Part shown: positions 1 to 11,259 of the stretch, piece by piece | Layout: every line of letters starts with the position of its first letter | Numbering within the stretch: position 1 is the stretch's first letter | DNA from: a virus | Lineage: Duplodnaviria > Heunggongvirae > Uroviricota > Caudoviricetes | Length of the DNA stretch: 11,259 nucleotides | Direction: 5' to 3' (one strand) | IMG/VR virus record: IMGVR_UViG_648276652_000017 | The notes under the pieces: model-generated | The model's database searches: none | Seen by the model: the letters and a program-made list of their open reading frames with translations, nothing else | What the model was told of the DNA's origin: nothing | Position numbers and translations under genes: made by a program

Positions 1-1862
1 TCACCATGATTAATATAGGTAAACTGCGCATTCGCCGTTCCACTTCCGCTGGATGTTGTCGGTGTGGTTATGCGGATCGTCATCGCTGACTTTATCCCCA
101 TCACCTCAATGACAGCGCCGGCGAGATGAATATTTCCGCAGCCCGTATCCGTGATGATTTTATTATTACCGTAAGACCAGGAGCCCTTGCACATCCAGTA
201 TGGGTGGTTAAATGCGCCCTGAGAATCCAGCCACCCGATAAACTGTGCGGTCGTCCAGTCTCCTGTCGTTGTGCTTACGGCCCCACCGAAGGCACGGCAG
301 GCACCAATATTTTTCGTAAAGGTGTCTTTGTCGGGGACATCCGCACCGTTCTTATCTTTCTGCAGTCGTTTCTCAGCATTCTCACAGGCGGCTTTTACGG
401 CCTTTGGTGTTGCCGCCAGTGACTCGGACGTGCTGTTGGTCGCACTGCTGAGCTGGACTATCCCCTTTTTCGTCGTGCTCGCATCCTCAAGCGCCACGGC
501 AGACGCAATATCCTCCGCCCGTTTTGCCGCAGTCTCAGCGCGCGTTGCCGCGGATTCTGCCGTGCTTTTGCTCTGTGCTGCCGCTGTCGCACTGCCAGCT
601 GCCTCTGTCGCCTTCGCGGATGCCGTCGTGGCACTGCCCTGCGCCTCTGACGCCAGCCTTGCCGCCTCATCTTTTGAAGCTGACGCCGATGATGCTGATG
701 ACGCCGCCGAACTGGCGGACGATACGGCTGCCGTTTTTGAGGATTCTGCGCTGGTTTCCGACGCTTTCGCGTTCGTCTCGGATGTCCTCGCAGCGGAAGC
801 AGACCTCGCTGCTGCAGTGGCCTGTTCAGTGGCTTCGCCAGCCTTCGTTGTGGCTGCTGAAGCGGACGATGCGGCGCTTTCTGCCGATTTTCCGGCGGCG
901 GTGGCACTGGCTGAGGCCTCCTCCGCTTTAACTGACGCCTCACGGGACGATGATGCAGCGGCAGTTTCTGAGCCTGCTGCTGCGGAGGCACTCTGTTCCG
1001 CTGCCGTTTCAGAAGACCTGGCGTTCGTCTCAGACGTCTTTGCCGCCTTCGCGGAATTTCCTGCCGCCGTTGCCGAGGAAGCTGCGCTACCGGCGCTCGA
1101 GGCTGCGCTCGTTTCTGATGATTTTGCAGCCTCTTTTGAGGCCGCCGCATCCCTGGCTGACGTGGCAGCTTCTGACGCTTTCGAGGTCGCGGTGGATGCA
1201 GACGTGGCGGCTGATTGTTGTGACGCTGCCGCATTCGTTTCTGACGTTTTCGCGGCACCGGCACTGGTGGCCGCCGCGCTTTTTGAGGACTCTGCAGCGG
1301 CAGCACTTTTTGATGCCTCAGCGGCCTTTGCTGAGGCTGTTTCTGCGCCGGAAGATGCTTCCTGTGCTGACGTCGCAGCCTGTCCGGCGGACGTGCTGGC
1401 GGCGCGTGCTGAGCCTGCAGCATCAGTCGCATGGGTTGCCGCCTCACGGGCAGATGTTCCGGCATCGCCGGCGGATTTTTTCGCGGCTGCCGTGTTCTGT
1501 GCCACTGCGGACGCGTTACGCGCCACCTCTTCCACCATCAGTTCAAAACGGCGCAGAGCCTCCGGACGGGCATCATCCTCCGTCATGGCACCGAGAAAAT
1601 CATTCAGCGTACCGGGTCGGGAATCTTCATACACGGTGATGGTGCCGGCATGTGACGGCGGAAAACCGTCAACCAGCAGGATGACACCGTACTGGCCGTA
1701 CTCAACGTCCATACTGTAACGCCCGGCTTCATCCGGATTTTCTGAGGCCACCGTGTTCACCACCACCGTGGTACTGTTACGTTTTGCTTTCAGCTGAATG
1801 GTGCAGTTCTGTACCGGTTTACCTGCACCGTCTTTCAGCACGCCTGAAATCTTTACTGCCAT
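1..1862 (-). CDS. stf: Side tail fiber protein (lambda Stf/orf-401 family), 3'-partial; gene continues beyond window start
   Basis: Minus-strand ATG at 1862..1860. Hand translation begins MAVKISGVLKDGAGKPVQNCTIQLKAKRNSTTVVVNTVASE, the N-terminus I recall for lambda Stf. Centre is Ala/Ser/Thr-rich with KTSETNA-like repeats (e.g. SSETAAEQSASAAAGSETA around 960..1020). I checked by hand that this frame has no stop from 1862 down to position 3 (no TTA/CTA/TCA in plus frame 3). The plus ORFs 271..1719, 524..931, 950..1639 and minus ORF 458..1465 are out-of-frame shadows of this gene. Confidence 0.85.
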   Translation of the reverse strand, partial: MAVKISGVLKDGAGKPVQNCTIQLKAKRNSTTVVVNTVASENPDEAGRYSMDVEYGQYGVILLVDGFPPSHAGTITVYEDSRPGTLNDFLGAMTEDDARPEALRRFELMVEEVARNASAVAQNTAAAKKSAGDAGTSAREAATHATDAAGSARAASTSAGQAATSAQEASSGAETASAKAAEASKSAAAAESSKSAAATSAGAAKTSETNAAASQQSAATSASTATSKASEAATSARDAAASKEAAKSSETSAASSAGSAASSATAAGNSAKAAKTSETNARSSETAAEQSASAAAGSETAAASSSREASVKAEEASASATAAGKSAESAASSASAATTKAGEATEQATAAARSASAARTSETNAKASETSAESSKTAAVSSASSAASSASSASASKDEAARLASEAQGSATTASAKATEAAGSATAAAQSKSTAESAATRAETAAKRAEDIASAVALEDASTTKKGIVQLSSATNSTSESLAATPKAVKAACENAEKRLQKDKNGADVPDKDTFTKNIGACRAFGGAVSTTTGDWTTAQFIGWLDSQGAFNHPYWMCKGSWSYGNNKIITDTGCGNIHLAGAVIEVMGIKSAMTIRITTPTTSSGSGTANAQFTYINHG

Positions 1863-1920: not shown

Positions 1921-4900
1921 TCAGCTGATACTGATACCAGCTGTGGATTTCTTCATCACGACAACAAGAAGGTCACTGATACTGCTCGTTGGCGTCCAGT
2001 TATTAGCGCCATATGAAGAGACATTGAAAGTCAGGGTGACATGCCCGTGTCCTGCAGGCATATCAATGACTGATGAAAATACCCGACTGACATCCGTCGC
2101 AGGTTGGTGAAAGATTTCCTGTCCGTTCTTCAGTACCTGCAGCTTACAGGTTGAATACCAGTATGACTGTTGGTTGTTGCTGTTGAAGTTTTCATGCTTA
2201 CCACCGCGAAACAGAACGGGTGGAATCACTATCTGACGGTCAAAAGCCTGATCATCATACACAGTGACCGTTATCGTACCGCTGGCATAACTGCTGTTTC
2301 TCGGAAAGGCTTTTCCCACCGTTTTGACAATATCGCCTTCAATCTGGCTGGCAGACAGTTTTCCCAGAATCCGGCAGTTCTGGTTAATCGTGACGTTGTT
2401 GAGTGTTCCGGAGTTCGCATTTACATTACCGCTGATATCGGCATTTTTCGCCGTCAGCCGCCCGTCCGGCGTCAGGGAAAAGGCCGGAGGATTGCCGCCG
2501 CTGGTAATGGTGGGGGCCGTCAGGCGCTTCAGGAACACGTCGTTCATGAATATCTGATCGCCCTGACCAACAAACATCGGTTTTGTGTTGCCATTCGCAG
2601 GATTAACCATCGCAATCCTGTCCGCCGCCAGCAGCACCTGACTCTGCATGCCGTCAGGGGTGTTCTCAATACCGGCACCAATACCCGCGATATAAAGGCG
2701 TCCGTCCTGCATCTGCTGCAGCTTCACAGCCCACATGCTGTTCAGATTATTATTTGTATCAACCTGAACCTTCTGTATCTGCTGAATTGCCGCACTCTGG
2801 TCTTCCAGTTTCTTATTGACGGTCTGTGTGATTTCATTGCTGACATCCGTAATGGACGTCCTGATTTCAGCCAGATCAGGCGCCAGCTGACCGTTATCAA
2901 TCTGCGTCCACAGCTCCTGAGCCAGATGGGTTTTTCCTATCTCGCCTTTGAAAAAATCCAGATAGCCGGATGCATCATCACTCGGCTGACCAACAGCCTC
3001 CACGAATGCCGATTTGCCAACGGTGTTCACACTGCGGATATAAAAGTAATAATCATGGCCCGGCCTGATATTGATACTGGCGGCTATCCAGTACAGCGCC
3101 GTGCCAAGATAGCGTGCTGTGGTTTCAACCTGCCTGATATCCGCAATCCGCTTTTCCGAGAACCAGAACTCAAACTGTACCGTCGGATCATAAACCGCAA
3201 GATGCGGCGTGGCGGTTATCTGAAAATAGCCCGGCGTCAGCTCAATCCGCGACGGCGCTGCCGGTGCGGCAATCCGGAACGATACCGACGCCGGATCGCC
3301 CTGCTGCCCCCACGCATTTACTGCCCGGACTGTCAGCCTGTAGTTCCCCAGAGCCAGTTGTGTGAAGCGGTAAGTGGTTTCCGTCGTCCGGGCCGTGCTG
3401 ACCAGCCGCTCACTGCCGTCATCCGCTGCCACGGTCAGGCGAAGCATGAAACTCACGCCCTTCACCACCTTCGGCGTGTCCCAGCGGGCCAGTACCTGAT
3501 ACTCCCCGCTGTCTGCGGTGACTTCGGCAGTCAGGTGCTGCACTGCTGGCGGCGTGACACCATTCACCGTGCCGCTCTGGTCGCCGTCAAAGTGCGCCCC
3601 GTTATCCACGATAGCTTCTTTTTCCGGTACATGCTGCACGGCAGTGATGGCATACGTGCCGTCGTCGTTCTCACGGATACTCACGCAGCGGAACAGGCGC
3701 TGGCGCAGCGTCGGCAGCTTCAGCCCCCATACGCTGTATCCGGCAACGCCGTCAGGAACACGGCTCACTTTCACCTTCACGCCGTCGGTGACGGACTGAA
3801 CCTCCACGCTGACCGGATTACCACTTCCGTCAACCAGGCTTATCAGCGTGGTACCGGAGGATGGCAGCGTGATTTCACGGTCGAGCGTCAGCGTCCGGGT
3901 CTGGCTGTTTACCGCCAGCACGCGTCCGCCGGTGCGGATACCGGCATAGTCATCATCGCAGATTTCAATGACATCGCCCGGTACATGGCGAAGCCCTTCG
4001 GCACCCACGCTGAAGTCCACGGTCTGCGTTTCCAGCAGTTCTGTTTTAATCAGCCACAGCCCGGCGCGGTGTGCCTGCCCCCGGCTGGTACAGCCAAAAG
4101 CATCCATCTTCGTGACGTTACGACCGTAACGGGCAATGGCCTGCGTGTCCTCCACAAGCTCTGTCGCCGTCTCCCAGCCGTTATTCGGGTCAATCCAGTT
4201 CACCTCAACGGCATTATGGCGGTCCTTCAGGGCGCTGAAGCTGTAGCGGAACGGCGCGCCATCATCCGGCATCACCACATTACTGCGGTTATAGGTCCAC
4301 ACCTTATCCGACGGTCGGTCCTGCACGAACGTCAGCGTCTGCCCGTTCCATACCGGCATACAGCGCATCGCCGAGCAGAAATCACTGAGCACATCCCACG
4401 CCTTGCGCTGTGTGGTCAGGTACGCATTACAGGTGATGCGCGGCTCCGTGCCGCCAAAGCCGTCCGGCACTGACTGGTCGCAGTACTGGCCGATGACATA
4501 CAGCGCCCATTTGTCCACATCCGCCGCACCAAGACGTTTCCCCATGCCGTAGCGTGGATGGGTCAGCATATCCCACAGACACCAGGCCATGTTATTGCTG
4601 TATGCTGGCTTAAACGTTCCGTCCCAGATACCGCTGTATTGCCGAGTCTGCGGGTTATAGTTCGACGGCACCTGCAGAATACGCCCGCGCAGATGATAAT
4701 TACGGCTCACCTGCTGGCTGCCGAACTGCTCCGAATCCACCTGTACGCCGACCAGTGCCGTGTTCGGGTAGCACTGTTTCACATCGATGATTTCGGTGTA
4801 TGACGACCAGAGCGTTTTGTTCTGCAGCTGGTCTGTGGTGCTGTCCGGCGTCATCCTGCGCATCCGGATATTGAACGGGCGCGGCGGCAGGTTACCCACC

Positions 4901-5403
4901 ACCACCGATGCCAGATACTGCGAGGTGGTTTTGCCTTTAATGGTGATGTCTTTTTCCGTCACCCAGCCACCATTACGCTGTATCTGAACCAGCAGGCGGA
5001 CTTCCGACGGATTCCGGTCCCCCTTTGAGGTGGTTTCCACCAGTGCCTGCACACCGAAGGTAAAGCGCAGACGGTCGATGTTTGCCGACGTGATGGTCCT
5101 GGTAATCGGCGTGTCGTACTTCACTTCCGTACCCAGCACCGTCTCGGAGCCGGAGGATTCAAATCCCTCCGGCGGTGTCTGCTCCTGCTCACCGGCCCGG
5201 AACACCACCGTGACGCCGGATATATTGGTATTCCCCTCACTGTCCAGCACCGGCGTACTGTTCAGCAGCACGCTTTTTAATCCGTCCACCGGACCTTCAA
5301 CCGGCCCTTCGCTGATGGCATCGATCACACTCAGCAGCTGCGTGGACTTCAGGTTGTCCTTCGCTTCGCGCGGGGTATGCCCCTTACTGCTGCCTTTACC
5401 CAT
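1921..5403 (-). CDS. J: Tail tip attachment / host specificity protein J (central tail fiber), 1160 aa
   Basis: ORF track translation starts [54 protein letters not shown] and is collinear over most of its length with lambda J as I recall it (lambda J is 1132 aa). ATG at 5403..5401 and TGA at 1923..1921 confirmed from sequence. The C-terminal roughly 250 residues appear divergent from lambda J. Confidence 0.95.
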
Positions 5404-5463: not shown

Positions 5464-6105
5464 TCAGCGACCAATCACCACAACCTGACCACCATCCCCT
5501 TCGTCTGCCGTGCTGATCTCCTGAGAAACCACGCGTGACCCCACGCGCATTTCACCGTACAGAACCGGCAGAACATTGCCCTGGGCAACCATGTTATCCA
5601 GTGAAGAAAAATAGGTATTCTGTTTGCCGTTATCCGTTGTCTGTGTGCGGGGGGTTTTGGGTTTAGGGGCCAGCATCTGTGCAACACCGCCAAGCGTCAT
5701 ACTGGCACCGAGAGAAAACAGCAGATTACTCGCCATAATTCCTACCCCCGGCATCCATATAGCAACCGCCATAACAGCCGCCCCCAGCACAGCCTGAAAC
5801 ACACCGCCACTTTTGGCTCCTGCCAGACGCGGCACGATATGGATCACGGCACCATTTTCCAGCGGCTCATTAAGACGGGCAGACAATTCGGTTTCACCTG
5901 CATCACGCCCGGCAATGCGTACCTGGTACCAGCCGTCGCTCAGTTTCTGACGAAATGCCGGGATCTGCATGGCCAGCGCCCGGATGGCTTCGGACCCCGT
6001 TTTCACTCGAAGGTCGATGCGGCGGCCAAATCGTTGTAAATCCCCGTAAAGGCAGATGCGTGCCATGCCCGGTGACGCCAGAGGGAGTGTGTGCGTCGCT
6101 GCCAT
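5464..6105 (-). CDS. I: Tail tip assembly protein I (ubiquitin-like N-terminal domain family), 213 aa
   Basis: Translation MAATHTLPLASPGMARICLYGDLQRFGRRIDLRVKTG ... NGKQNTYFSSLDNMVAQGNVLPVLYGEMRVGSRVVSQEISTADEGDGGQVVVIGR matches lambda gpI as I recall it. Position is between K and J as in lambda. ATG at 6105..6103 confirmed. The start overlaps the 3' end of K by 103 nt in another frame, so the true start could be a downstream Met. Confidence 0.9.
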   Translation of the reverse strand: MAATHTLPLASPGMARICLYGDLQRFGRRIDLRVKTGSEAIRALAMQIPAFRQKLSDGWYQVRIAGRDAGETELSARLNEPLENGAVIHIVPRLAGAKSGGVFQAVLGAAVMAVAIWMPGVGIMASNLLFSLGASMTLGGVAQMLAPKPKTPRTQTTDNGKQNTYFSSLDNMVAQGNVLPVLYGEMRVGSRVVSQEISTADEGDGGQVVVIGR

Positions 6106-6746
6106 TTGTCGGTGTACCTCTCTCGTTTGCTCAGTTGTTCAGGAATATGGTGCAGCAGCTCGCTGTCACCACAGTAAATGGCGGCATGATTCGGCACCGA
6201 TGAACCAAAACAGCACAGCAGCACATCGCCCGGCTGCGCCGCTGACAACGGCACCTGATACAGCCCTGTGGCCTCCAGATTATCCAGATAGAGATTCTGA
6301 CCGTTACGCCACCAGTCATCCCCGCGATGAAAATCCGGCATCTCAATTCCCGCCAGATGGTAAGCGTCCCGGAACAGCGTGTAACAGTCCGTTACCCCGT
6401 GCTCAAAGCGCCGCCCGGTGAGATGCGGCACACAGCGGAATTTATGAATCGCCCCCCGGCAGACCAGCCACCACGGCAAATCACTCTGTACCTGCAGCCG
6501 CCGGTCGGCCTCACTCAGCCAGGGCAGACCACCGGGGTGGCTGTGGACCAGCGCCACAATCTCTCTCTGCATTTCTGCACTCAGCCAGTCCTCCGGCGAC
6601 ATCCGGAAATACTCCTCCGGCTCACCGGAGATATTCACGCAGGGAAAATATCTTTCCTCCTCCGGCGTTCTCACCACGAAGCCGCACGACTCCGCTGGCG
6701 CACATCGCCGGGCGTGCGCCAGAATCGCTGATTCTGTCTCTGTCAT
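6003..6746 (-). CDS. K: Tail tip assembly protein K (JAB/MPN metalloprotease-like plus NlpC/P60 peptidase-like domains), 247 aa
   Basis: Translation MTETESAILAHARRCAPAESCGFVV... contains a JAMM-like motif HSHPGGLPWLSEAD (HxH-x7-S-xx-D) and NlpC/P60-like Cys/His context (GVTDCYTLF, VPNHAAIYCGD). ATG at 6746..6744 lies 3 nt downstream of the L stop. Length is longer than the 199 aa I recall for lambda K, so the 3' end should be checked against references. Confidence 0.9.
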   Translation of the reverse strand: MTETESAILAHARRCAPAESCGFVVRTPEEERYFPCVNISGEPEEYFRMSPEDWLSAEMQREIVALVHSHPGGLPWLSEADRRLQVQSDLPWWLVCRGAIHKFRCVPHLTGRRFEHGVTDCYTLFRDAYHLAGIEMPDFHRGDDWWRNGQNLYLDNLEATGLYQVPLSAAQPGDVLLCCFGSSVPNHAAIYCGDSELLHHIPEQLSKRERYTDKWQRRTHSLWRHRAWHASAFTGIYNDLAAASTFE

Positions 6747-6751
6747 GGGAT

Positions 6752-7450
6752 TTACTGCGAAAGTTTGTTAATGGAAAGGAAGCTGCCAAAGTTGCCGACA
6801 TTATTGCGAAACTTACAGCCACTCAGGCATTTGCTGCATTTATCCTTCGTGATATCGGACGTCGGCTGGTCATATTCATCCGCGACCGCCGGACCGCTAT
6901 AACCGCACTCATCGCCGCGATAGGTCCAGGTGCAGGTGTTGGCCAGCATGATACGTCCCGGAAAAACAGCGCCATCCGTTTCAGTCGGCGTGGACAGTAC
7001 AAAAGAGGCACTGACCGCGCTCAGTTCGCTGCACTGCTCGATGCGCCAGCGGCTGATCACCTCCTGCTCCGGATCGGCTTCGCTGTTTCCGTTGACGAAG
7101 TTCACCGCATCCAGAAAGCGGGCGTAAACCTTACGCCGGACCACCGTTCCGCCGACCAGACTCTGCAGATCTTCCGCCATCCCGGTGATCATGCCGTGCA
7201 GGTTAGAGACCGTCAGTGTCGGACGGGCAGCACTGCCCTTGCCGTTCATCTCAAATCCACTCCCCTGAATGGGATAGGCCTGATACTGCCGACTCTGCCA
7301 GGTGACAGACTCACCTTTTTCGTTCTGCTCATTACAGAAAAAGTAGCGATCCCCGCCTACCTCGGTCAGGTCGATTTCCCAGAGCACCACGCTGGCCGAC
7401 TGCTCCGCACGAATGCATTCATTCAGCGTTTCCTGTTGTATGTCCTGCAT
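6752..7450 (-). CDS. L: Minor tail protein L, 232 aa
   Basis: Translation MQDIQQETLNECIRAEQSASVVLWEIDLTEVGG ... CSKCLSGCKFRNNVGNFGSFLSINKLSQ is near-identical to lambda gpL as I recall it, with the same length (232 aa). ATG at 7450..7448, TAA at 6754..6752. Confidence 0.95.
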   Translation of the reverse strand: MQDIQQETLNECIRAEQSASVVLWEIDLTEVGGDRYFFCNEQNEKGESVTWQSRQYQAYPIQGSGFEMNGKGSAARPTLTVSNLHGMITGMAEDLQSLVGGTVVRRKVYARFLDAVNFVNGNSEADPEQEVISRWRIEQCSELSAVSASFVLSTPTETDGAVFPGRIMLANTCTWTYRGDECGYSGPAVADEYDQPTSDITKDKCSKCLSGCKFRNNVGNFGSFLSINKLSQ

Positions 7451-7454
7451 CAGA

Positions 7455-7787
7455 TCACCACTTCGTCAAACTGACACGAAAAATCGGTATAGGTGATATG
7501 TTCTGTCGCTGACCACGTTCGACACACCACTCTGATTTTTCTGTTAATACCCGGCGGGCGCCAAAAAAAGATTTATAGCCTTCATGCCGGGCTAAAAATT
7601 TTTCAAATGAATCACGTTCATTCGCCTCAACTTTGAAATCACAGGTGAAAACGCGCAGAGAATGATTAAGTCCATTTGGACTTCGTTGCTCATAACCATC
7701 GCCAAATCTTACAGTTTTTATCGATGGTTTATTTTCTGTTTTCATTCCATCCTCTGGTAACCAGTGAAATTCTTCCGTATTAGCCAC
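7455..7787 (-). CDS. M: Minor tail protein M (lambda gpM family, divergent), 110 aa
   Basis: Translation contains FHWLPEDGM...[12 protein letters not shown], resembling lambda gpM (FRWKVKPGM...KVRFGDGYSQR). The start codon at 7787..7785 is GTG, not ATG, and overlaps the H stop (minus strand GTGGCTAA, with TAA at 7782..7780). Similarity to lambda M extends upstream of the internal ATG at 7745, which favours the GTG start. The gene lies in A+T-rich DNA, unlike L. Confidence 0.8.
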
Positions 7788-10700
7788 TTAACATTCCCCC
7801 ATCACGTCGCATATTTAACAGATTGCCCTGCACCCGCTGATCAACCATCCCCATAAGTGCTTTTATTGCCTGAGGGCCAATCTCTCCATTCTGGCCGTCA
7901 TTTTGAATAGTGATTTGGTATACAGGGGCATAGGTAATATCTCCGCCTCCATTACCACTTTTACTATTAATAGCTCTGACACCAAGAGAACCATCGGAAG
8001 TTCGTGTTAATGGCATAATGGCTTCCGGTCCAGCCTCACCAAAAACACCAGCCCCTTTTGCAAAAGCAAAAAATTGCGGGGAATCATAAATACCGTTCGA
8101 ATACGTGCTCAATGACGGAGACTCATAAACACCGCCCTTTGCATTCGGAATAAATTTACTAATAGCACTCCCGATAGTTCCTAAAATCCCCCCAGAAGAA
8201 CTGTTACTAATGCTGTCGAAAATCCCAGTAATTGAAGCCTTTAATGCTATTCGACTAAGATCCGAAATCACGGAAGTAGCGAAAGAACGAAAATTTGCCT
8301 TGCCTGTCGTGACAAAATCACCCAGCGCATCGGTCATCCCATCAAACATCTGAGTCGTGGTTGATTTTATCTGCTCACTGATATCCTTAGTGTCATCCAG
8401 CCAGTTATTGAATCCCTGGGAGGCACCACTAACCCAGTCTCCTGCCTGAATATCGAGCTGCTCGTTTTTCTGTCTGACAATTTCTTTTTCCCGTTCCAGA
8501 GCATCATTCAGAGCCTGCATTTTCTCTTGAAAAACATGATCTGACATTCCACGGGATTTATCTGCATAGTCACGTTCAAGTTGCAGACGCTGATTGTTAT
8601 ATCCATGTTCAATCCGCAGTAATTCCTGCTGGCGTTGCTGATTTTTATCGCCAACCCCATAACCAGCAATCTGAATATCATACCCCTGCTGACGATTATC
8701 AATCGAAGCCTGCAATGAATCACGCCATGCTGTTATTTCGGCGGATTCCTTGATTAGCCTGTTATTTTTTTCAATCGCAACATTTTTCTCCATCAACGTG
8801 GTTATTTCTTCCCGGTGTAAGAGAAGCGATTTCTGATCCTGGGTTAATTTCGATGATGGTCGTGACTCTAGGTCGGCAATCCGCTGACGCCACTTAACCA
8901 GTTCCTGTTCAGAGGAACTTAATTTAACGGTCAACTCAGCTTGTGAACTTAGTAACGCATTCTGTTGATTCAGATGATCAATCATTCGTTGGGCTGCATC
9001 ATCAGAATAATCTTTCGCCTTTGGTTGCTTTGGATCTTTATAACGCTCATTTATTTGAGCGATAAGATTATTATATTCTTCCTTTGAATACTGATTCTTT
9101 AGCTTTTCCAGTTTTGCAAGTTCACTAGCTCTCTGCTGCTCCCGGGTCTGATATTGTTTTGAAAAGGCATCTGCTCTCTGTCTGAGTTCAATTCCTTCCT
9201 GTTGTCGCTTGTTGTAATCGTTTATTGATGAATTTAGTACGTCCTGAGCAATTTTTTCTGCTTGAAGTACGCCCAATTGCTGCTTTAATCGTGCCAGCCT
9301 TTTATTTTGAGCTCCGCCATCTCCAATGCCACCTAACCCGAAAACTCCGGATCGGGTATTTTTTTCTATTTCATCAATTTGACGGAGAACATCTGAGATT
9401 TTTTGATCAAGGGAGGCCTCACGGCCAATATCCAGCATGGAATCCCATGCCCATTTTGCGGAGTCTGCGACAGCTTTCCATGCAGTCTCAAGATAACCAA
9501 GATTTTCTTTAATCTGGTTGGTGCGCTGGATCATTGAGGATGAGTATTCTTCTGTCGCAATGCGGGCGGCCTCCTGCTGGTTCCCTTCATCCTGTAGCGC
9601 CTTAATCTGGTTATAAGTCGCAAGTGTCAGAAAATGGTACTGATCATTAAGTTTTGATATGGCACTGACAGGATCCTTTGCAATTTCATTGAAGTCATTA
9701 ACCAGTTGTTCGGTTGATATTCCTGTTACTTCGCTCGTTTTTACTATCGCTGTCGTCACTTGCTCCAGCGAACTGCTCGCTACCTTTCCCGAACGCACAA
9801 GCTGATTTAATACTGCCGCCGCAGCACCAGTTGTCGAATCAGCCGCATTCCCGGCACGTTGAGCTAAATCGCCCAATTGCCCGCTGGTTGTCCCCAACTG
9901 ATTTCCGGTAAGAATAAGAGATTTATTAAATTCGTCCTGCTCCTGAGAGCCTTTATAGTAAGCCAGTCCTAAGACCCCAACGGCTGCTGCGGCCAGGGTA
10001 AAAGGATTAATTAATCCCAGCACATAAGAACCTACCCCTTTGATCGCCGGGCCAATCCCACCGAACATATCTTTTAGCTGGCCGCCCTGCTGCATTAACA
10101 CCATAAATGGCGACTGACCAGTGGACAACCCAACAACAATATCCGTCATTTGTGCAGGCAACATGCGCATAGCAAAAGCCGTTTGTTTTGCCGACATTCC
10201 GGTTTTGCTTAATTGTGATTGAGTAACCTCAAGCTCACTCCGCATAGCACGAAGTTTTCCAGAAAGCTCCTCATACATTTCAGGAGAAAGCATCCCCTTA
10301 GCTTTTGCTTCATTGAGCTGTTTCTGTTGTTCTACCAGACGATTAAAAGCAGTTCCGACAGGATCAAGTTGAGCAATCAGACGTTGCAAAGCAACAACCT
10401 GTTCATCATGCGCTTTTGCTGCTTCTCGCTCTGCCTGAGCCTCTCCGGTAAGCTCTCGCCGTGTTTCCTGTATTTTTCGGCTATAATTCTCAAACTGAGA
10501 ACCATTTATTTTCCCGGATGCAAACGCAGCATTAAGTTCATCATGCTGTTGTTCAAGATTTCTTAGCGCCGCAGCCAGAGGGTCGATCTTGTCCAGCATT
10601 CTTTGAAAGGCCTGAGCCTGCGCTTCCTGCTGGGCGGCAGCAAGTTTTCCGGCCTTCTCGGCTTCTCTCTGCGCTTGCGCAACCCCGCTCAATTCCTCTG

Positions 10701-10923
10701 TGGTTTCATTAAGTTTACGGACAAGAAATTCATATTCTTCTTTATCAATAAGCCCTTTATCGAAAAATTTCTTTAATTCAGAATAGCGTCGACCGACAGT
10801 ATCAATTGCGGCACCAACTGGATCAATAGCTGCTTTTAATTTTGCGAGCGCGTTCTTCTCATCTTCTGTTGCCTTAGTCACTTTCCCTGCGCTATTTGCA
10901 GCAGTTTCCCCAGCCTGCGTCAT
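7780..10923 (-). CDS. H: Tail length tape measure protein (lambda gpH family), at least 1047 aa; 5' end probably displaced by the IS2 insertion
   Basis: Contains [41 protein letters not shown] (compare lambda [41 protein letters not shown]) and the C-terminal [16 protein letters not shown]...RRDGGMLSG block (compare lambda ...NNDGTNGQIGPAALKAV...MRDGGLFSG). Long coiled-coil-like, Q/E/K-rich centre. The reading frame stays open upstream of the ATG at 10923 up to and into the IS2 end, with no in-frame ATG/GTG/TTG and no Shine-Dalgarno before 10923. Confidence 0.9.
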
Positions 10924-11004
10924 TTTGACTAATGAGGAGGTCAGATTGTCAGCATTATTTTTCGCTCCAGTGCTATCAATAATTATTGCGAGACGCGAGG
11001 TTTG

Positions 11005-11045
11005 TAGACTGGCCCCCTGAATCTCCAGACAACCAATATCACTTA
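11005..11045 (+). repeat. IS2 left terminal inverted repeat region (approximate extent)
   Basis: Terminal sequence TAGACTGGCCCCCTGAATCTCCAGACAACCAATATCACTTA matches the IS2 end as I recall it. It contains an internal 8-bp inverted repeat ATCACTTA-tt-TAAGTGAT at 11038..11055. Confidence 0.7.
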
Positions 11046-11095
11046 TTTAAGTGATAGTCTTAATACTAGTTTTTAGACTAGTCATTGGAGAGCAG

Positions 11096-11259
11096 ATGAT
11101 TGATGTCTTAGGACCGGAGAAACGCAGACGGCGTACTACACAGGAAAAGATCGCTATTGTTCAGCAGAGTTTTGAACCGGGAATGACAGTCTCCCTTGTT
11201 GCCCGGCAACACGGTGTGGCAGCCAGCCAGTTATTTCTCTGGCGCAAGCAATACCAGGG
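11096..11259 (+). CDS. insC: IS2 transposase OrfA (InsC), 5'-partial (first 54 codons in window)
   Basis: ATG at 11096 preceded by GGAG 7 nt upstream. Translation matches the IS2 InsC N-terminus, including the helix-turn-helix region ([22 protein letters not shown]). Runs off the window end. Confidence 0.9.

Follow-up and report, generated by a model that had tools for sequence, protein, structure and literature searches.

The gene for the tape measure protein (TMP) of a lambdoid prophage contains, ahead of its conserved core, three old and diverged tandem copies of a helical module of 73–80 residues. These copies probably act mainly as ruler length, and the variation in their number between phages would stem from old duplication and cassette exchange; we give this reading a probability of roughly 65%. 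The gene lies in a stretch of 11,259 nucleotides, referred to here as the window (IMG/VR record IMGVR_UViG_648276652_000017, Caudoviricetes), which is the tail-tip end of the prophage, carried on the minus strand. Tape measure proteins are the standard textbook example of a molecular ruler, and we know of no natural ruler unit catalogued for the lambda/TMP_2 family. The Rac-type TMP gene itself is already well known; its repeat architecture appears in no annotation that we have seen, and it is described here as an uncatalogued instance of repeat units in tape measure proteins.

The long open reading frame (ORF) of the window, at 7780–10923 on the minus strand, is a 5'-truncated part of the TMP gene. 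The intact allele, with which the window copy agrees fully from residue 4 on, is found in Escherichia coli CI5 (WP_000840620.1, 1077 residues; NZ_CP011018 1033958-1037191). Residues are numbered below according to this intact protein, which corresponds to the window ORF number plus 30. An earlier note on this DNA, made without database searches, had announced a protein of 1047 residues or more; the ORF indeed translates as quoted there, while the full length is 1077 residues, the 5' end having been lost to an insertion sequence, IS2.

Three (I/L)DP motifs start at residues 63, 143 and 216 (33, 113 and 186 of the window ORF). With the units cut four residues ahead of each of them, unit 1 covers residues 59–138 (80 residues, 10600..10839, minus strand, as for all TMP features below), unit 2 residues 139–211 (73 residues, 10381..10599) and unit 3 residues 212–284 (73 residues, 10162..10380). 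They score 82, 89 and 81 bits, respectively, against the unit profile introduced below. The resulting span of 10162–10839 is close to the 10190–10840 that had been proposed; the number of units was also right, but not their supposed uniform length of about 77 residues. Smith–Waterman comparisons between the units give scores of 123, 76 and 81, to be compared with 25–30 ± 5 for shuffled sequences (z = 16.6, 9.6 and 11.4), and none of 2000 composition-preserving shuffles reached the observed values. The alignments are in register and remain ungapped across a core of about 50 residues. Self-alignment of the protein thus bears out the three tandem repeats of the N-terminal region. The same Smith–Waterman and shuffle test detects no similarity to the units in the N-terminal 58 residues, and this non-repetitive head (residues 4–58, 10840..11004) is common to the one-, three- and four-unit alleles.

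At the DNA level, the repeats are no longer detectable. In-register identity between units is 43–46%, in line with the divergence already pointed out in the earlier note, with exact in-register runs of at most 5–7 nt and no exact repeat in any position exceeding 11 nt. Tandem Repeats Finder (TRF) returns nothing in the window, and a repeat search gives only chance-like matches of 11–24 nt. The three units are old tandem copies, whose repetition in the DNA has essentially decayed.

The repeat region is rich in Ala (15%), Glu (11.5%) and Gln (9%) and shows weak matches to SMC coiled-coil models, which could suggest that the similarity between units merely reflects the composition of an Ala/Glu/Gln-rich helix. 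This explanation has next to no chance of being correct. It was considered and excluded on account of the shuffles, which never match the observed scores, of an ungapped register with invariant Asp, Pro and Gly, and of the profile search, in which hundreds of TMPs yield the unit at fixed offsets.

The product of the long ORF is recognisable from its sequence as a lambda-type tail tape measure protein. The matches to TMP_2 (273 bits for a cut-off of 30), TMP_4 (85 for 27), Tape_meas_lam_C (91 for 23) and TIGR01541 (218 for 105) all pass the curated cut-offs. TMP_2 covers residues 267–471 (9601..10215) and includes a hydrophobic segment, TMP_4 covers residues 671–748 (8770..9003) and Tape_meas_lam_C residues 858–932 (8218..8442). 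Together with the collinearity with lambda gpH, these matches identify the gene body retained in the window, i.e., codons 4–1077 and the stop codon (7780..11004). The gene lies between the tail chaperone position and the tip genes M-L-K-I-J, with the downstream genes being present in the window and the upstream ones, ydaY and a tail tube gene, in intact relatives.

Lambda gpH (853 residues), which deletions established as a ruler (Katsura and Hendrix 1984, cited in PMC3271669), is the natural reference. Both proteins share the TMP_2 and Tape_meas_lam_C domains and are followed by the genes M, L, K, I and J. Residues 270–1077 are collinear with H 57–850 (BLASTP, 28% identity, E 1e-77). Since this collinearity begins only at 270/57, the excess of 224 residues over lambda H is almost entirely N-terminal (213 of them precede the aligned block), and the repeats account for almost all of it, as expected for the N-terminal extension that had been proposed. 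The MRMLPAQ motif, which serves here as an anchor, had been placed near residue 70 in lambda H and near 252 in the window ORF. It is found at H 69–75 and at the equivalent positions 252–258 of the window ORF, i.e., residues 282–288 of the intact protein (10150..10170). The anchor is thus centred at 72 in lambda and at 285 here, and lambda H differs in having no DP/Gly unit ahead of it. Another difference concerns the chaperone position, held by G/GT in lambda and by a YdaY-type protein in the Rac type.

An alignment of units from many proteins shows (near-)invariant Asp6, Pro7 and Gly29, a strongly conserved Leu22 and, most often, an aromatic residue at position 36; an Ala/Gln/Glu-rich linker closes the non-terminal units. 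In unit 1, the core, with its SHOCT-like motif, occupies 10672–10839 and the linker 10600–10671. In each unit, a predicted helix of about 22 residues, starting at Asp-Pro, is followed by a conserved Gly loop and then by a second, longer helix that runs into the Ala/Gln/Glu-rich linker. A single-sequence AlphaFold2 (AF2) model of residues 1–323, used for secondary structure alone in view of its overall predicted local distance difference test (pLDDT) value of 60.8, shows long helices interrupted exactly at the Gly loops 86–90, 166–170 and 239–243. The model of unit 3 with the anchor, derived from a 69-sequence alignment, reaches a pLDDT of 84.5 and comprises a helix at positions 7–27, a loop at 28–32 and a second helix at 33–72. 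Hydrophobicity has a strong periodic component at 3.5 residues (z 8.8 over residues 59–284) and none at 3.6, and hydrophobic residues are enriched at the a/d positions (0.473, versus 0.251 ± 0.027 in shuffles). Predicted helices and heptad periodicity are both in agreement with the coiled-coil character claimed earlier. “Coiled-coil” is a fair description of the units, which may form either a parallel bundle or hairpins. It can be added that the spacings common in the family (63, 73 and 80 residues) all fall within 0.5 residue of a multiple of 3.5, and that the heptad signal remains coherent through the three-unit region, a pattern that would be expected if unit length had to preserve the heptad phase.

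No known fold or family covers the unit in the searches performed. Foldseek found no significant match of the unit model in the PDB, a PDB sequence search with residues 1–288 found no relative (best E 0.12), and no model spans the repeat unit in the Pfam scan, where TMP_2 starts only at residue 267. The closest likeness is to SHOCT (PF09851) and DUF1707, with a unit centre of the type L..L...G.I...E[YF] and two amphipathic helices about a conserved Gly. Related TMP arrays do pass the cut-offs of these families (SHOCT, 41.9 bits in P0151; DUF1707, 27.8 bits in P0122). Unit 1 reaches only 22.7 bits against SHOCT, under the 27-bit cut-off, and any SHOCT match at all is seen in only three out of 14 units. 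SHOCT domains are moreover mostly C-terminal and single-copy, whereas the units are internal, N-terminal, repeated and about twice as long. From this comparison of motifs and scores, the window units look SHOCT-like without being members of SHOCT.

The number of units varies widely among homologues. Among the 120 best matches to residues 1–506, the proteins with the same head were examined for the position of LPAQ. It lies at 132, corresponding to one unit, in 23 proteins, at 285 (three units) in 81 and at 365 (four units) in two, and proteins named after Klebsiella occur in both the one-unit and three-unit forms. The additional unit of the four-unit alleles is diverged and lies between units 1 and 2, sharing with unit 1 the linker and the MLDKIDP junction. 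A 56-column unit profile (A1), run against 1.84 billion cluster representatives, retrieved 416 proteins at E ≤ 1e-3, 70 of them at E ≤ 1e-10, nearly all of 900–2000 residues. Re-scanning the representatives revealed one to five units before LPAQ, with usual spacings of 63, 73 or 80 residues. In named phages, the count before the anchor is zero for lambda H and N15 gp16, two for the 1024-residue HK639 gp15 and three for the 1213-residue TMP of Klebsiella phage 5 LV-2017; T1 gp38 has one weak unit match, and HK97 gp16 belongs to another family. Comparison of copy number among homologues, as had been suggested, thus yields 0, 1, 2, 3, 4 or 5 units before LPAQ.

Of 86 representatives, 58 have the start of their last unit exactly 73 residues ahead of LPAQ, and unit 3 of the window occupies this family-typical place. 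The norm in this family is therefore one unit beside the anchor, to which the Rac type adds two; lambda is unusual in that it has lost the unit or never had it. The zero-unit TMPs have a weak unit-like motif, TPLEKYTARQEELNKALKDGKILQADY, midway along the protein, at about 405–440 of lambda H (L012) and 411–437 of N15 gp16 (L008), with a domain E-value (6e-4) for N15 alone.

The 11 multi-unit representatives classified by Pfam comprise eight TMP_2-family proteins, one of the TMP_3 family (P0184), one PhageMin_Tail/TMP_3 protein (P0132) and one passing the SHOCT cut-off alone (P0151). Two further proteins, P0178 and P0195, gave no significant family in the Pfam scan. P0132 carries at least 13 near-identical 63-residue copies in its C-terminal half (about 800–1620), and the P0151 fragment five near-identical 63-residue copies at about 150–465, in both cases just ahead of the C-terminal domain. 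Since their copies are near-identical, these arrays indicate that the unit can expand by recent tandem duplication, unlike the old copies studied here.

The earlier note had seen in the repeats a natural route to tail-length variation by unequal recombination. This is not supported in the present case, where no exact DNA repeat exceeds 11 nt and the E. coli population is uniform. The region is present in 1070 of 5426 complete E. coli genomes, always at ≥90% identity, and in 1064 of these 1070 the repeat region is matched at ≥80% coverage, mostly as one continuous match. Megablast retrieved neither the one-unit nor the four-unit allele DNA from the complete E. coli genomes, so that no within-E. 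coli copy-number polymorphism is shown. A currently active hotspot, generating tail-length variants by unequal homologous recombination, is thus very unlikely, all the more so as unit-to-unit DNA identity is low and TRF is empty for this allele. Some observations would nevertheless fit such a hotspot: the direct repeats retained in the four-unit allele, the near-identical arrays of other TMPs, and rare in-frame losses bounded by short homologies in a few E. coli contigs. These losses remove 37 residues in P0036 and P0037 (EAAKA/NEAKA) and 25 residues in P0033 (AMR/AMR), and may be either real variants or assembly artefacts.

Older events are more readily recognised. A four-unit locus (L003) and a one-unit locus (L006) are 85–93% identical over their first ~155 nt, except for one more diverged stretch, and again about 90–100% identical over ~330 nt from GGCATGTCxGCAAAGCAAACC on. 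Between these shared flanks, their cassettes, with four units in the former and a single unit in the latter, are unrelated. Unrelated cassettes inside conserved flanks read as the signature of mosaic exchange. On either side of its extra unit, the four-unit allele also retains direct repeats of 48–87 nt, 68–79% identical and with a period of 240 nt, and the three-unit form could therefore derive from this allele by a long-ago homeologous deletion. The range of copy numbers, from 0 to 5, would accordingly have arisen through old duplications and cassette replacement in conserved flanks, rather than through ongoing unequal crossing-over in this allele. Of note, the four-unit allele P0064 (L003:6001-9877) is only 505 residues long and is directly followed by a J-like gene (FNIII-A_GpJ); its locus looks like a deletion derivative devoid of most of the TMP and of the M-L-K-I genes.

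The effect of the units on protein length was quantified with 59 anchor-bearing representatives of 800–1300 residues. Each detected unit corresponds to an increase of 51 ± 13 residues in TMP length (r 0.47, p 2e-4) and of 54 ± 9 in the anchor position, the slope for the part following the anchor being −3 ± 8. Since this remainder is unchanged, more units mean a longer TMP, without compensation. From this scaling, we infer an effect on tail length. The TMP is fully extended in tails at 0.145 nm per residue in TP901-1 and 0.15 nm in lambda, and the TMP repeat number sets tail length at the former value in TP901-1 (PMC5099701). With these values, one unit would be worth about 9.4–12 nm (about 11–12 nm for the units here), and the 1077-residue TMP predicts a tail about 34 nm longer than that of lambda; at 0.15 nm per residue, the length set by the TMP would be about 160 nm, compared with about 128 nm in lambda. 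The units would most likely be ancient duplicates of a widespread module of 63–80 residues, lying in a lambda-type TMP after a short, conserved head and ahead of the MRMLPAQ/TMP_2 core, and their most likely role is to provide ruler length. The N-terminal part of TMPs is thought to be head-proximal.

Several points weigh against this proposal. The slope of 51 residues is smaller than the unit size, a shortfall probably due to diverged units escaping detection. The lowest-rmsd (root-mean-square deviation) Foldseek superpositions of the monomeric AF2 unit are antiparallel helical hairpins, and if hairpins persisted in the tail tube, the length contribution per residue would be about half. The literature on phages with this TMP (vB_EcoS-*, SPF_0923, Rac) gave in-silico prophage records alone, with no tail lengths by electron microscopy, and in the window itself the TMP gene is disrupted. 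Lastly, the conservation of the DP, Gly and aromatic positions, together with the fixed 73-residue offset of the last unit, exceeds what a pure spacer would need.

This last point is at the heart of a different view, according to which the units would mainly be docking or oligomerisation elements, involved in chaperone binding or in the nucleation of TMP trimers or hexamers, with length as a by-product. Asp-Pro and Gly have remained (near-)invariant, and Leu22 and the aromatic position strongly conserved, despite the great divergence of the units; the exact offset before LPAQ, the SHOCT-like unit centre and the related arrays above SHOCT or DUF1707 cut-offs point in the same direction, and TMP repeats have earlier been proposed as chaperone anchors (PMC3271669). 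The chaperone family does not, however, track the units, being Phage_TAC_4 in HK639 and T1, YdaY in the Rac type and Phage_TAC_2 in lambda and N15. SHOCT itself showed no oligomerisation in a published test (PMC3581485), and lambda and N15 build their tails without any unit before the anchor. On balance, a primary docking role looks rather unlikely. In the ruler reading, the conservation of DP, Gly and aromatic residues probably results from packing in the TMP oligomer or from contact with an assembly partner.

The units could also act after ejection, by making a longer or more stable trans-envelope conduit together with the hydrophobic segment. They are located immediately ahead of TMP_2 and its hydrophobic stretch, and lambda gpH* has been proposed to form a periplasmic channel, with residues 1–319 modelled as a hexameric tube and 116–140 as a possible transmembrane helix (PMC12617516). 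That lambda model is itself tentative, and phages whose hosts have similar envelopes carry anything between 0 and 5 units. Such a conduit function seems improbable, more so than docking, and ruler length remains the preferred role.

A bolder version of the ruler proposal can be put forward tentatively, at clearly less than even odds. The DP-helix-Gly-helix unit would be a discrete and portable ruler module, whose copy number would quantise siphophage tail length in steps of about 9–12 nm, and the unit located 73 residues ahead of LPAQ would serve assembly as a fixed element. The candidate module is seen in at least three TMP architectures, namely TMP_2, TMP_3 and PhageMin_Tail/TMP_3.

Repeats of other types are known within TMPs. 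The 11-residue W/F repeats (Belcaid et al. 2011) and the TP901-1 repeats (Mahony et al. 2016) resemble the present ones in being internal to the TMP and variable in number. In contrast to the 11-residue W/F repeats, the units are long (63–80 residues), marked by DP and Gly, N-terminal to the core, old and diverged. The [FW]-x10-[FW] pattern was not found in the 1077-residue protein, even as a four-repeat version of either published pattern (Belcaid or Siponen type).

The remainder of the window shows why its own TMP copy is disrupted. The match to intact TMP alleles in complete E. coli genomes (megablast) ends at 11004, and the last 255 bases (11005..11259, plus strand) belong to the left end of an IS2-family element, whose orfA starts at 11093 (HTH_Tnp_1, E 3e-15). 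The terminal sequence is presumably that of IS2 proper, and neighbouring megablast matches carry the annotation “IS3-like element IS2 family”. The insertion lies after nucleotide 9 of the TMP gene, so that codons 1–3 (ATG-GCA-GAG) are replaced. The exact TMP/IS2 junction was not found as one continuous match among the top complete-genome matches. With IS2 in between, the TMP body is cut off from its start codon and ribosome-binding site, and the tail module of the window's strain is therefore probably defective.

Apart from this break at codon 3/4, the gene is the TMP gene of the E. coli Rac prophage (WP_000840620.1 in intact prophages; ynaA/tmpR remnant in K-12), its product in the window being identical to that of CI5 from residue 4. 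K-12-type strains (matches H119, H120 and H122) annotate the region 10170–10850 of the window as ynaA, a Rac TMP remnant. As ynaA is this same N-terminal repeat region, the three repeats are present in E. coli K-12.

Downstream of the TMP gene, all on the minus strand, lie M (7455–7787, Phage_min_tail match), L (6752–7450, Phage_tail_L), K (6003–6746, JAB/NlpC), I (5464–6105, Lambda_tail_I) and J (1921–5403, matching gpJ domains). A 335-residue ORF further downstream of J (458–1465, minus strand) has no Pfam match at E ≤ 1e-4. On the other side, the position of the lambda G/GT chaperone is held in a relative by ydaY (L001:7115-7947, outside the window; Pfam PF27119, Phage_YdaY). About 470 nt without annotation separate ydaY from the TMP start in this relative; a frameshift extension of the lambda T kind could be encoded there.

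For the window itself, the message is a modest one, that of a well-known Rac-type TMP inactivated by IS2. More generally, a defined module, with a 56-residue core, is present in hundreds of TMP clusters in 0–5 copies or more, and differences in its copy number would give phages an unremarkable means of varying their tail length. The interest lies mainly in a well-ordered series of natural variants on which ruler mechanics can be tested: the natural one-, three- and four-unit alleles, set in nearly identical flanks, form a clean set with which the tail length gained per unit could be determined, and thereby whether the TMP is extended or folded back.

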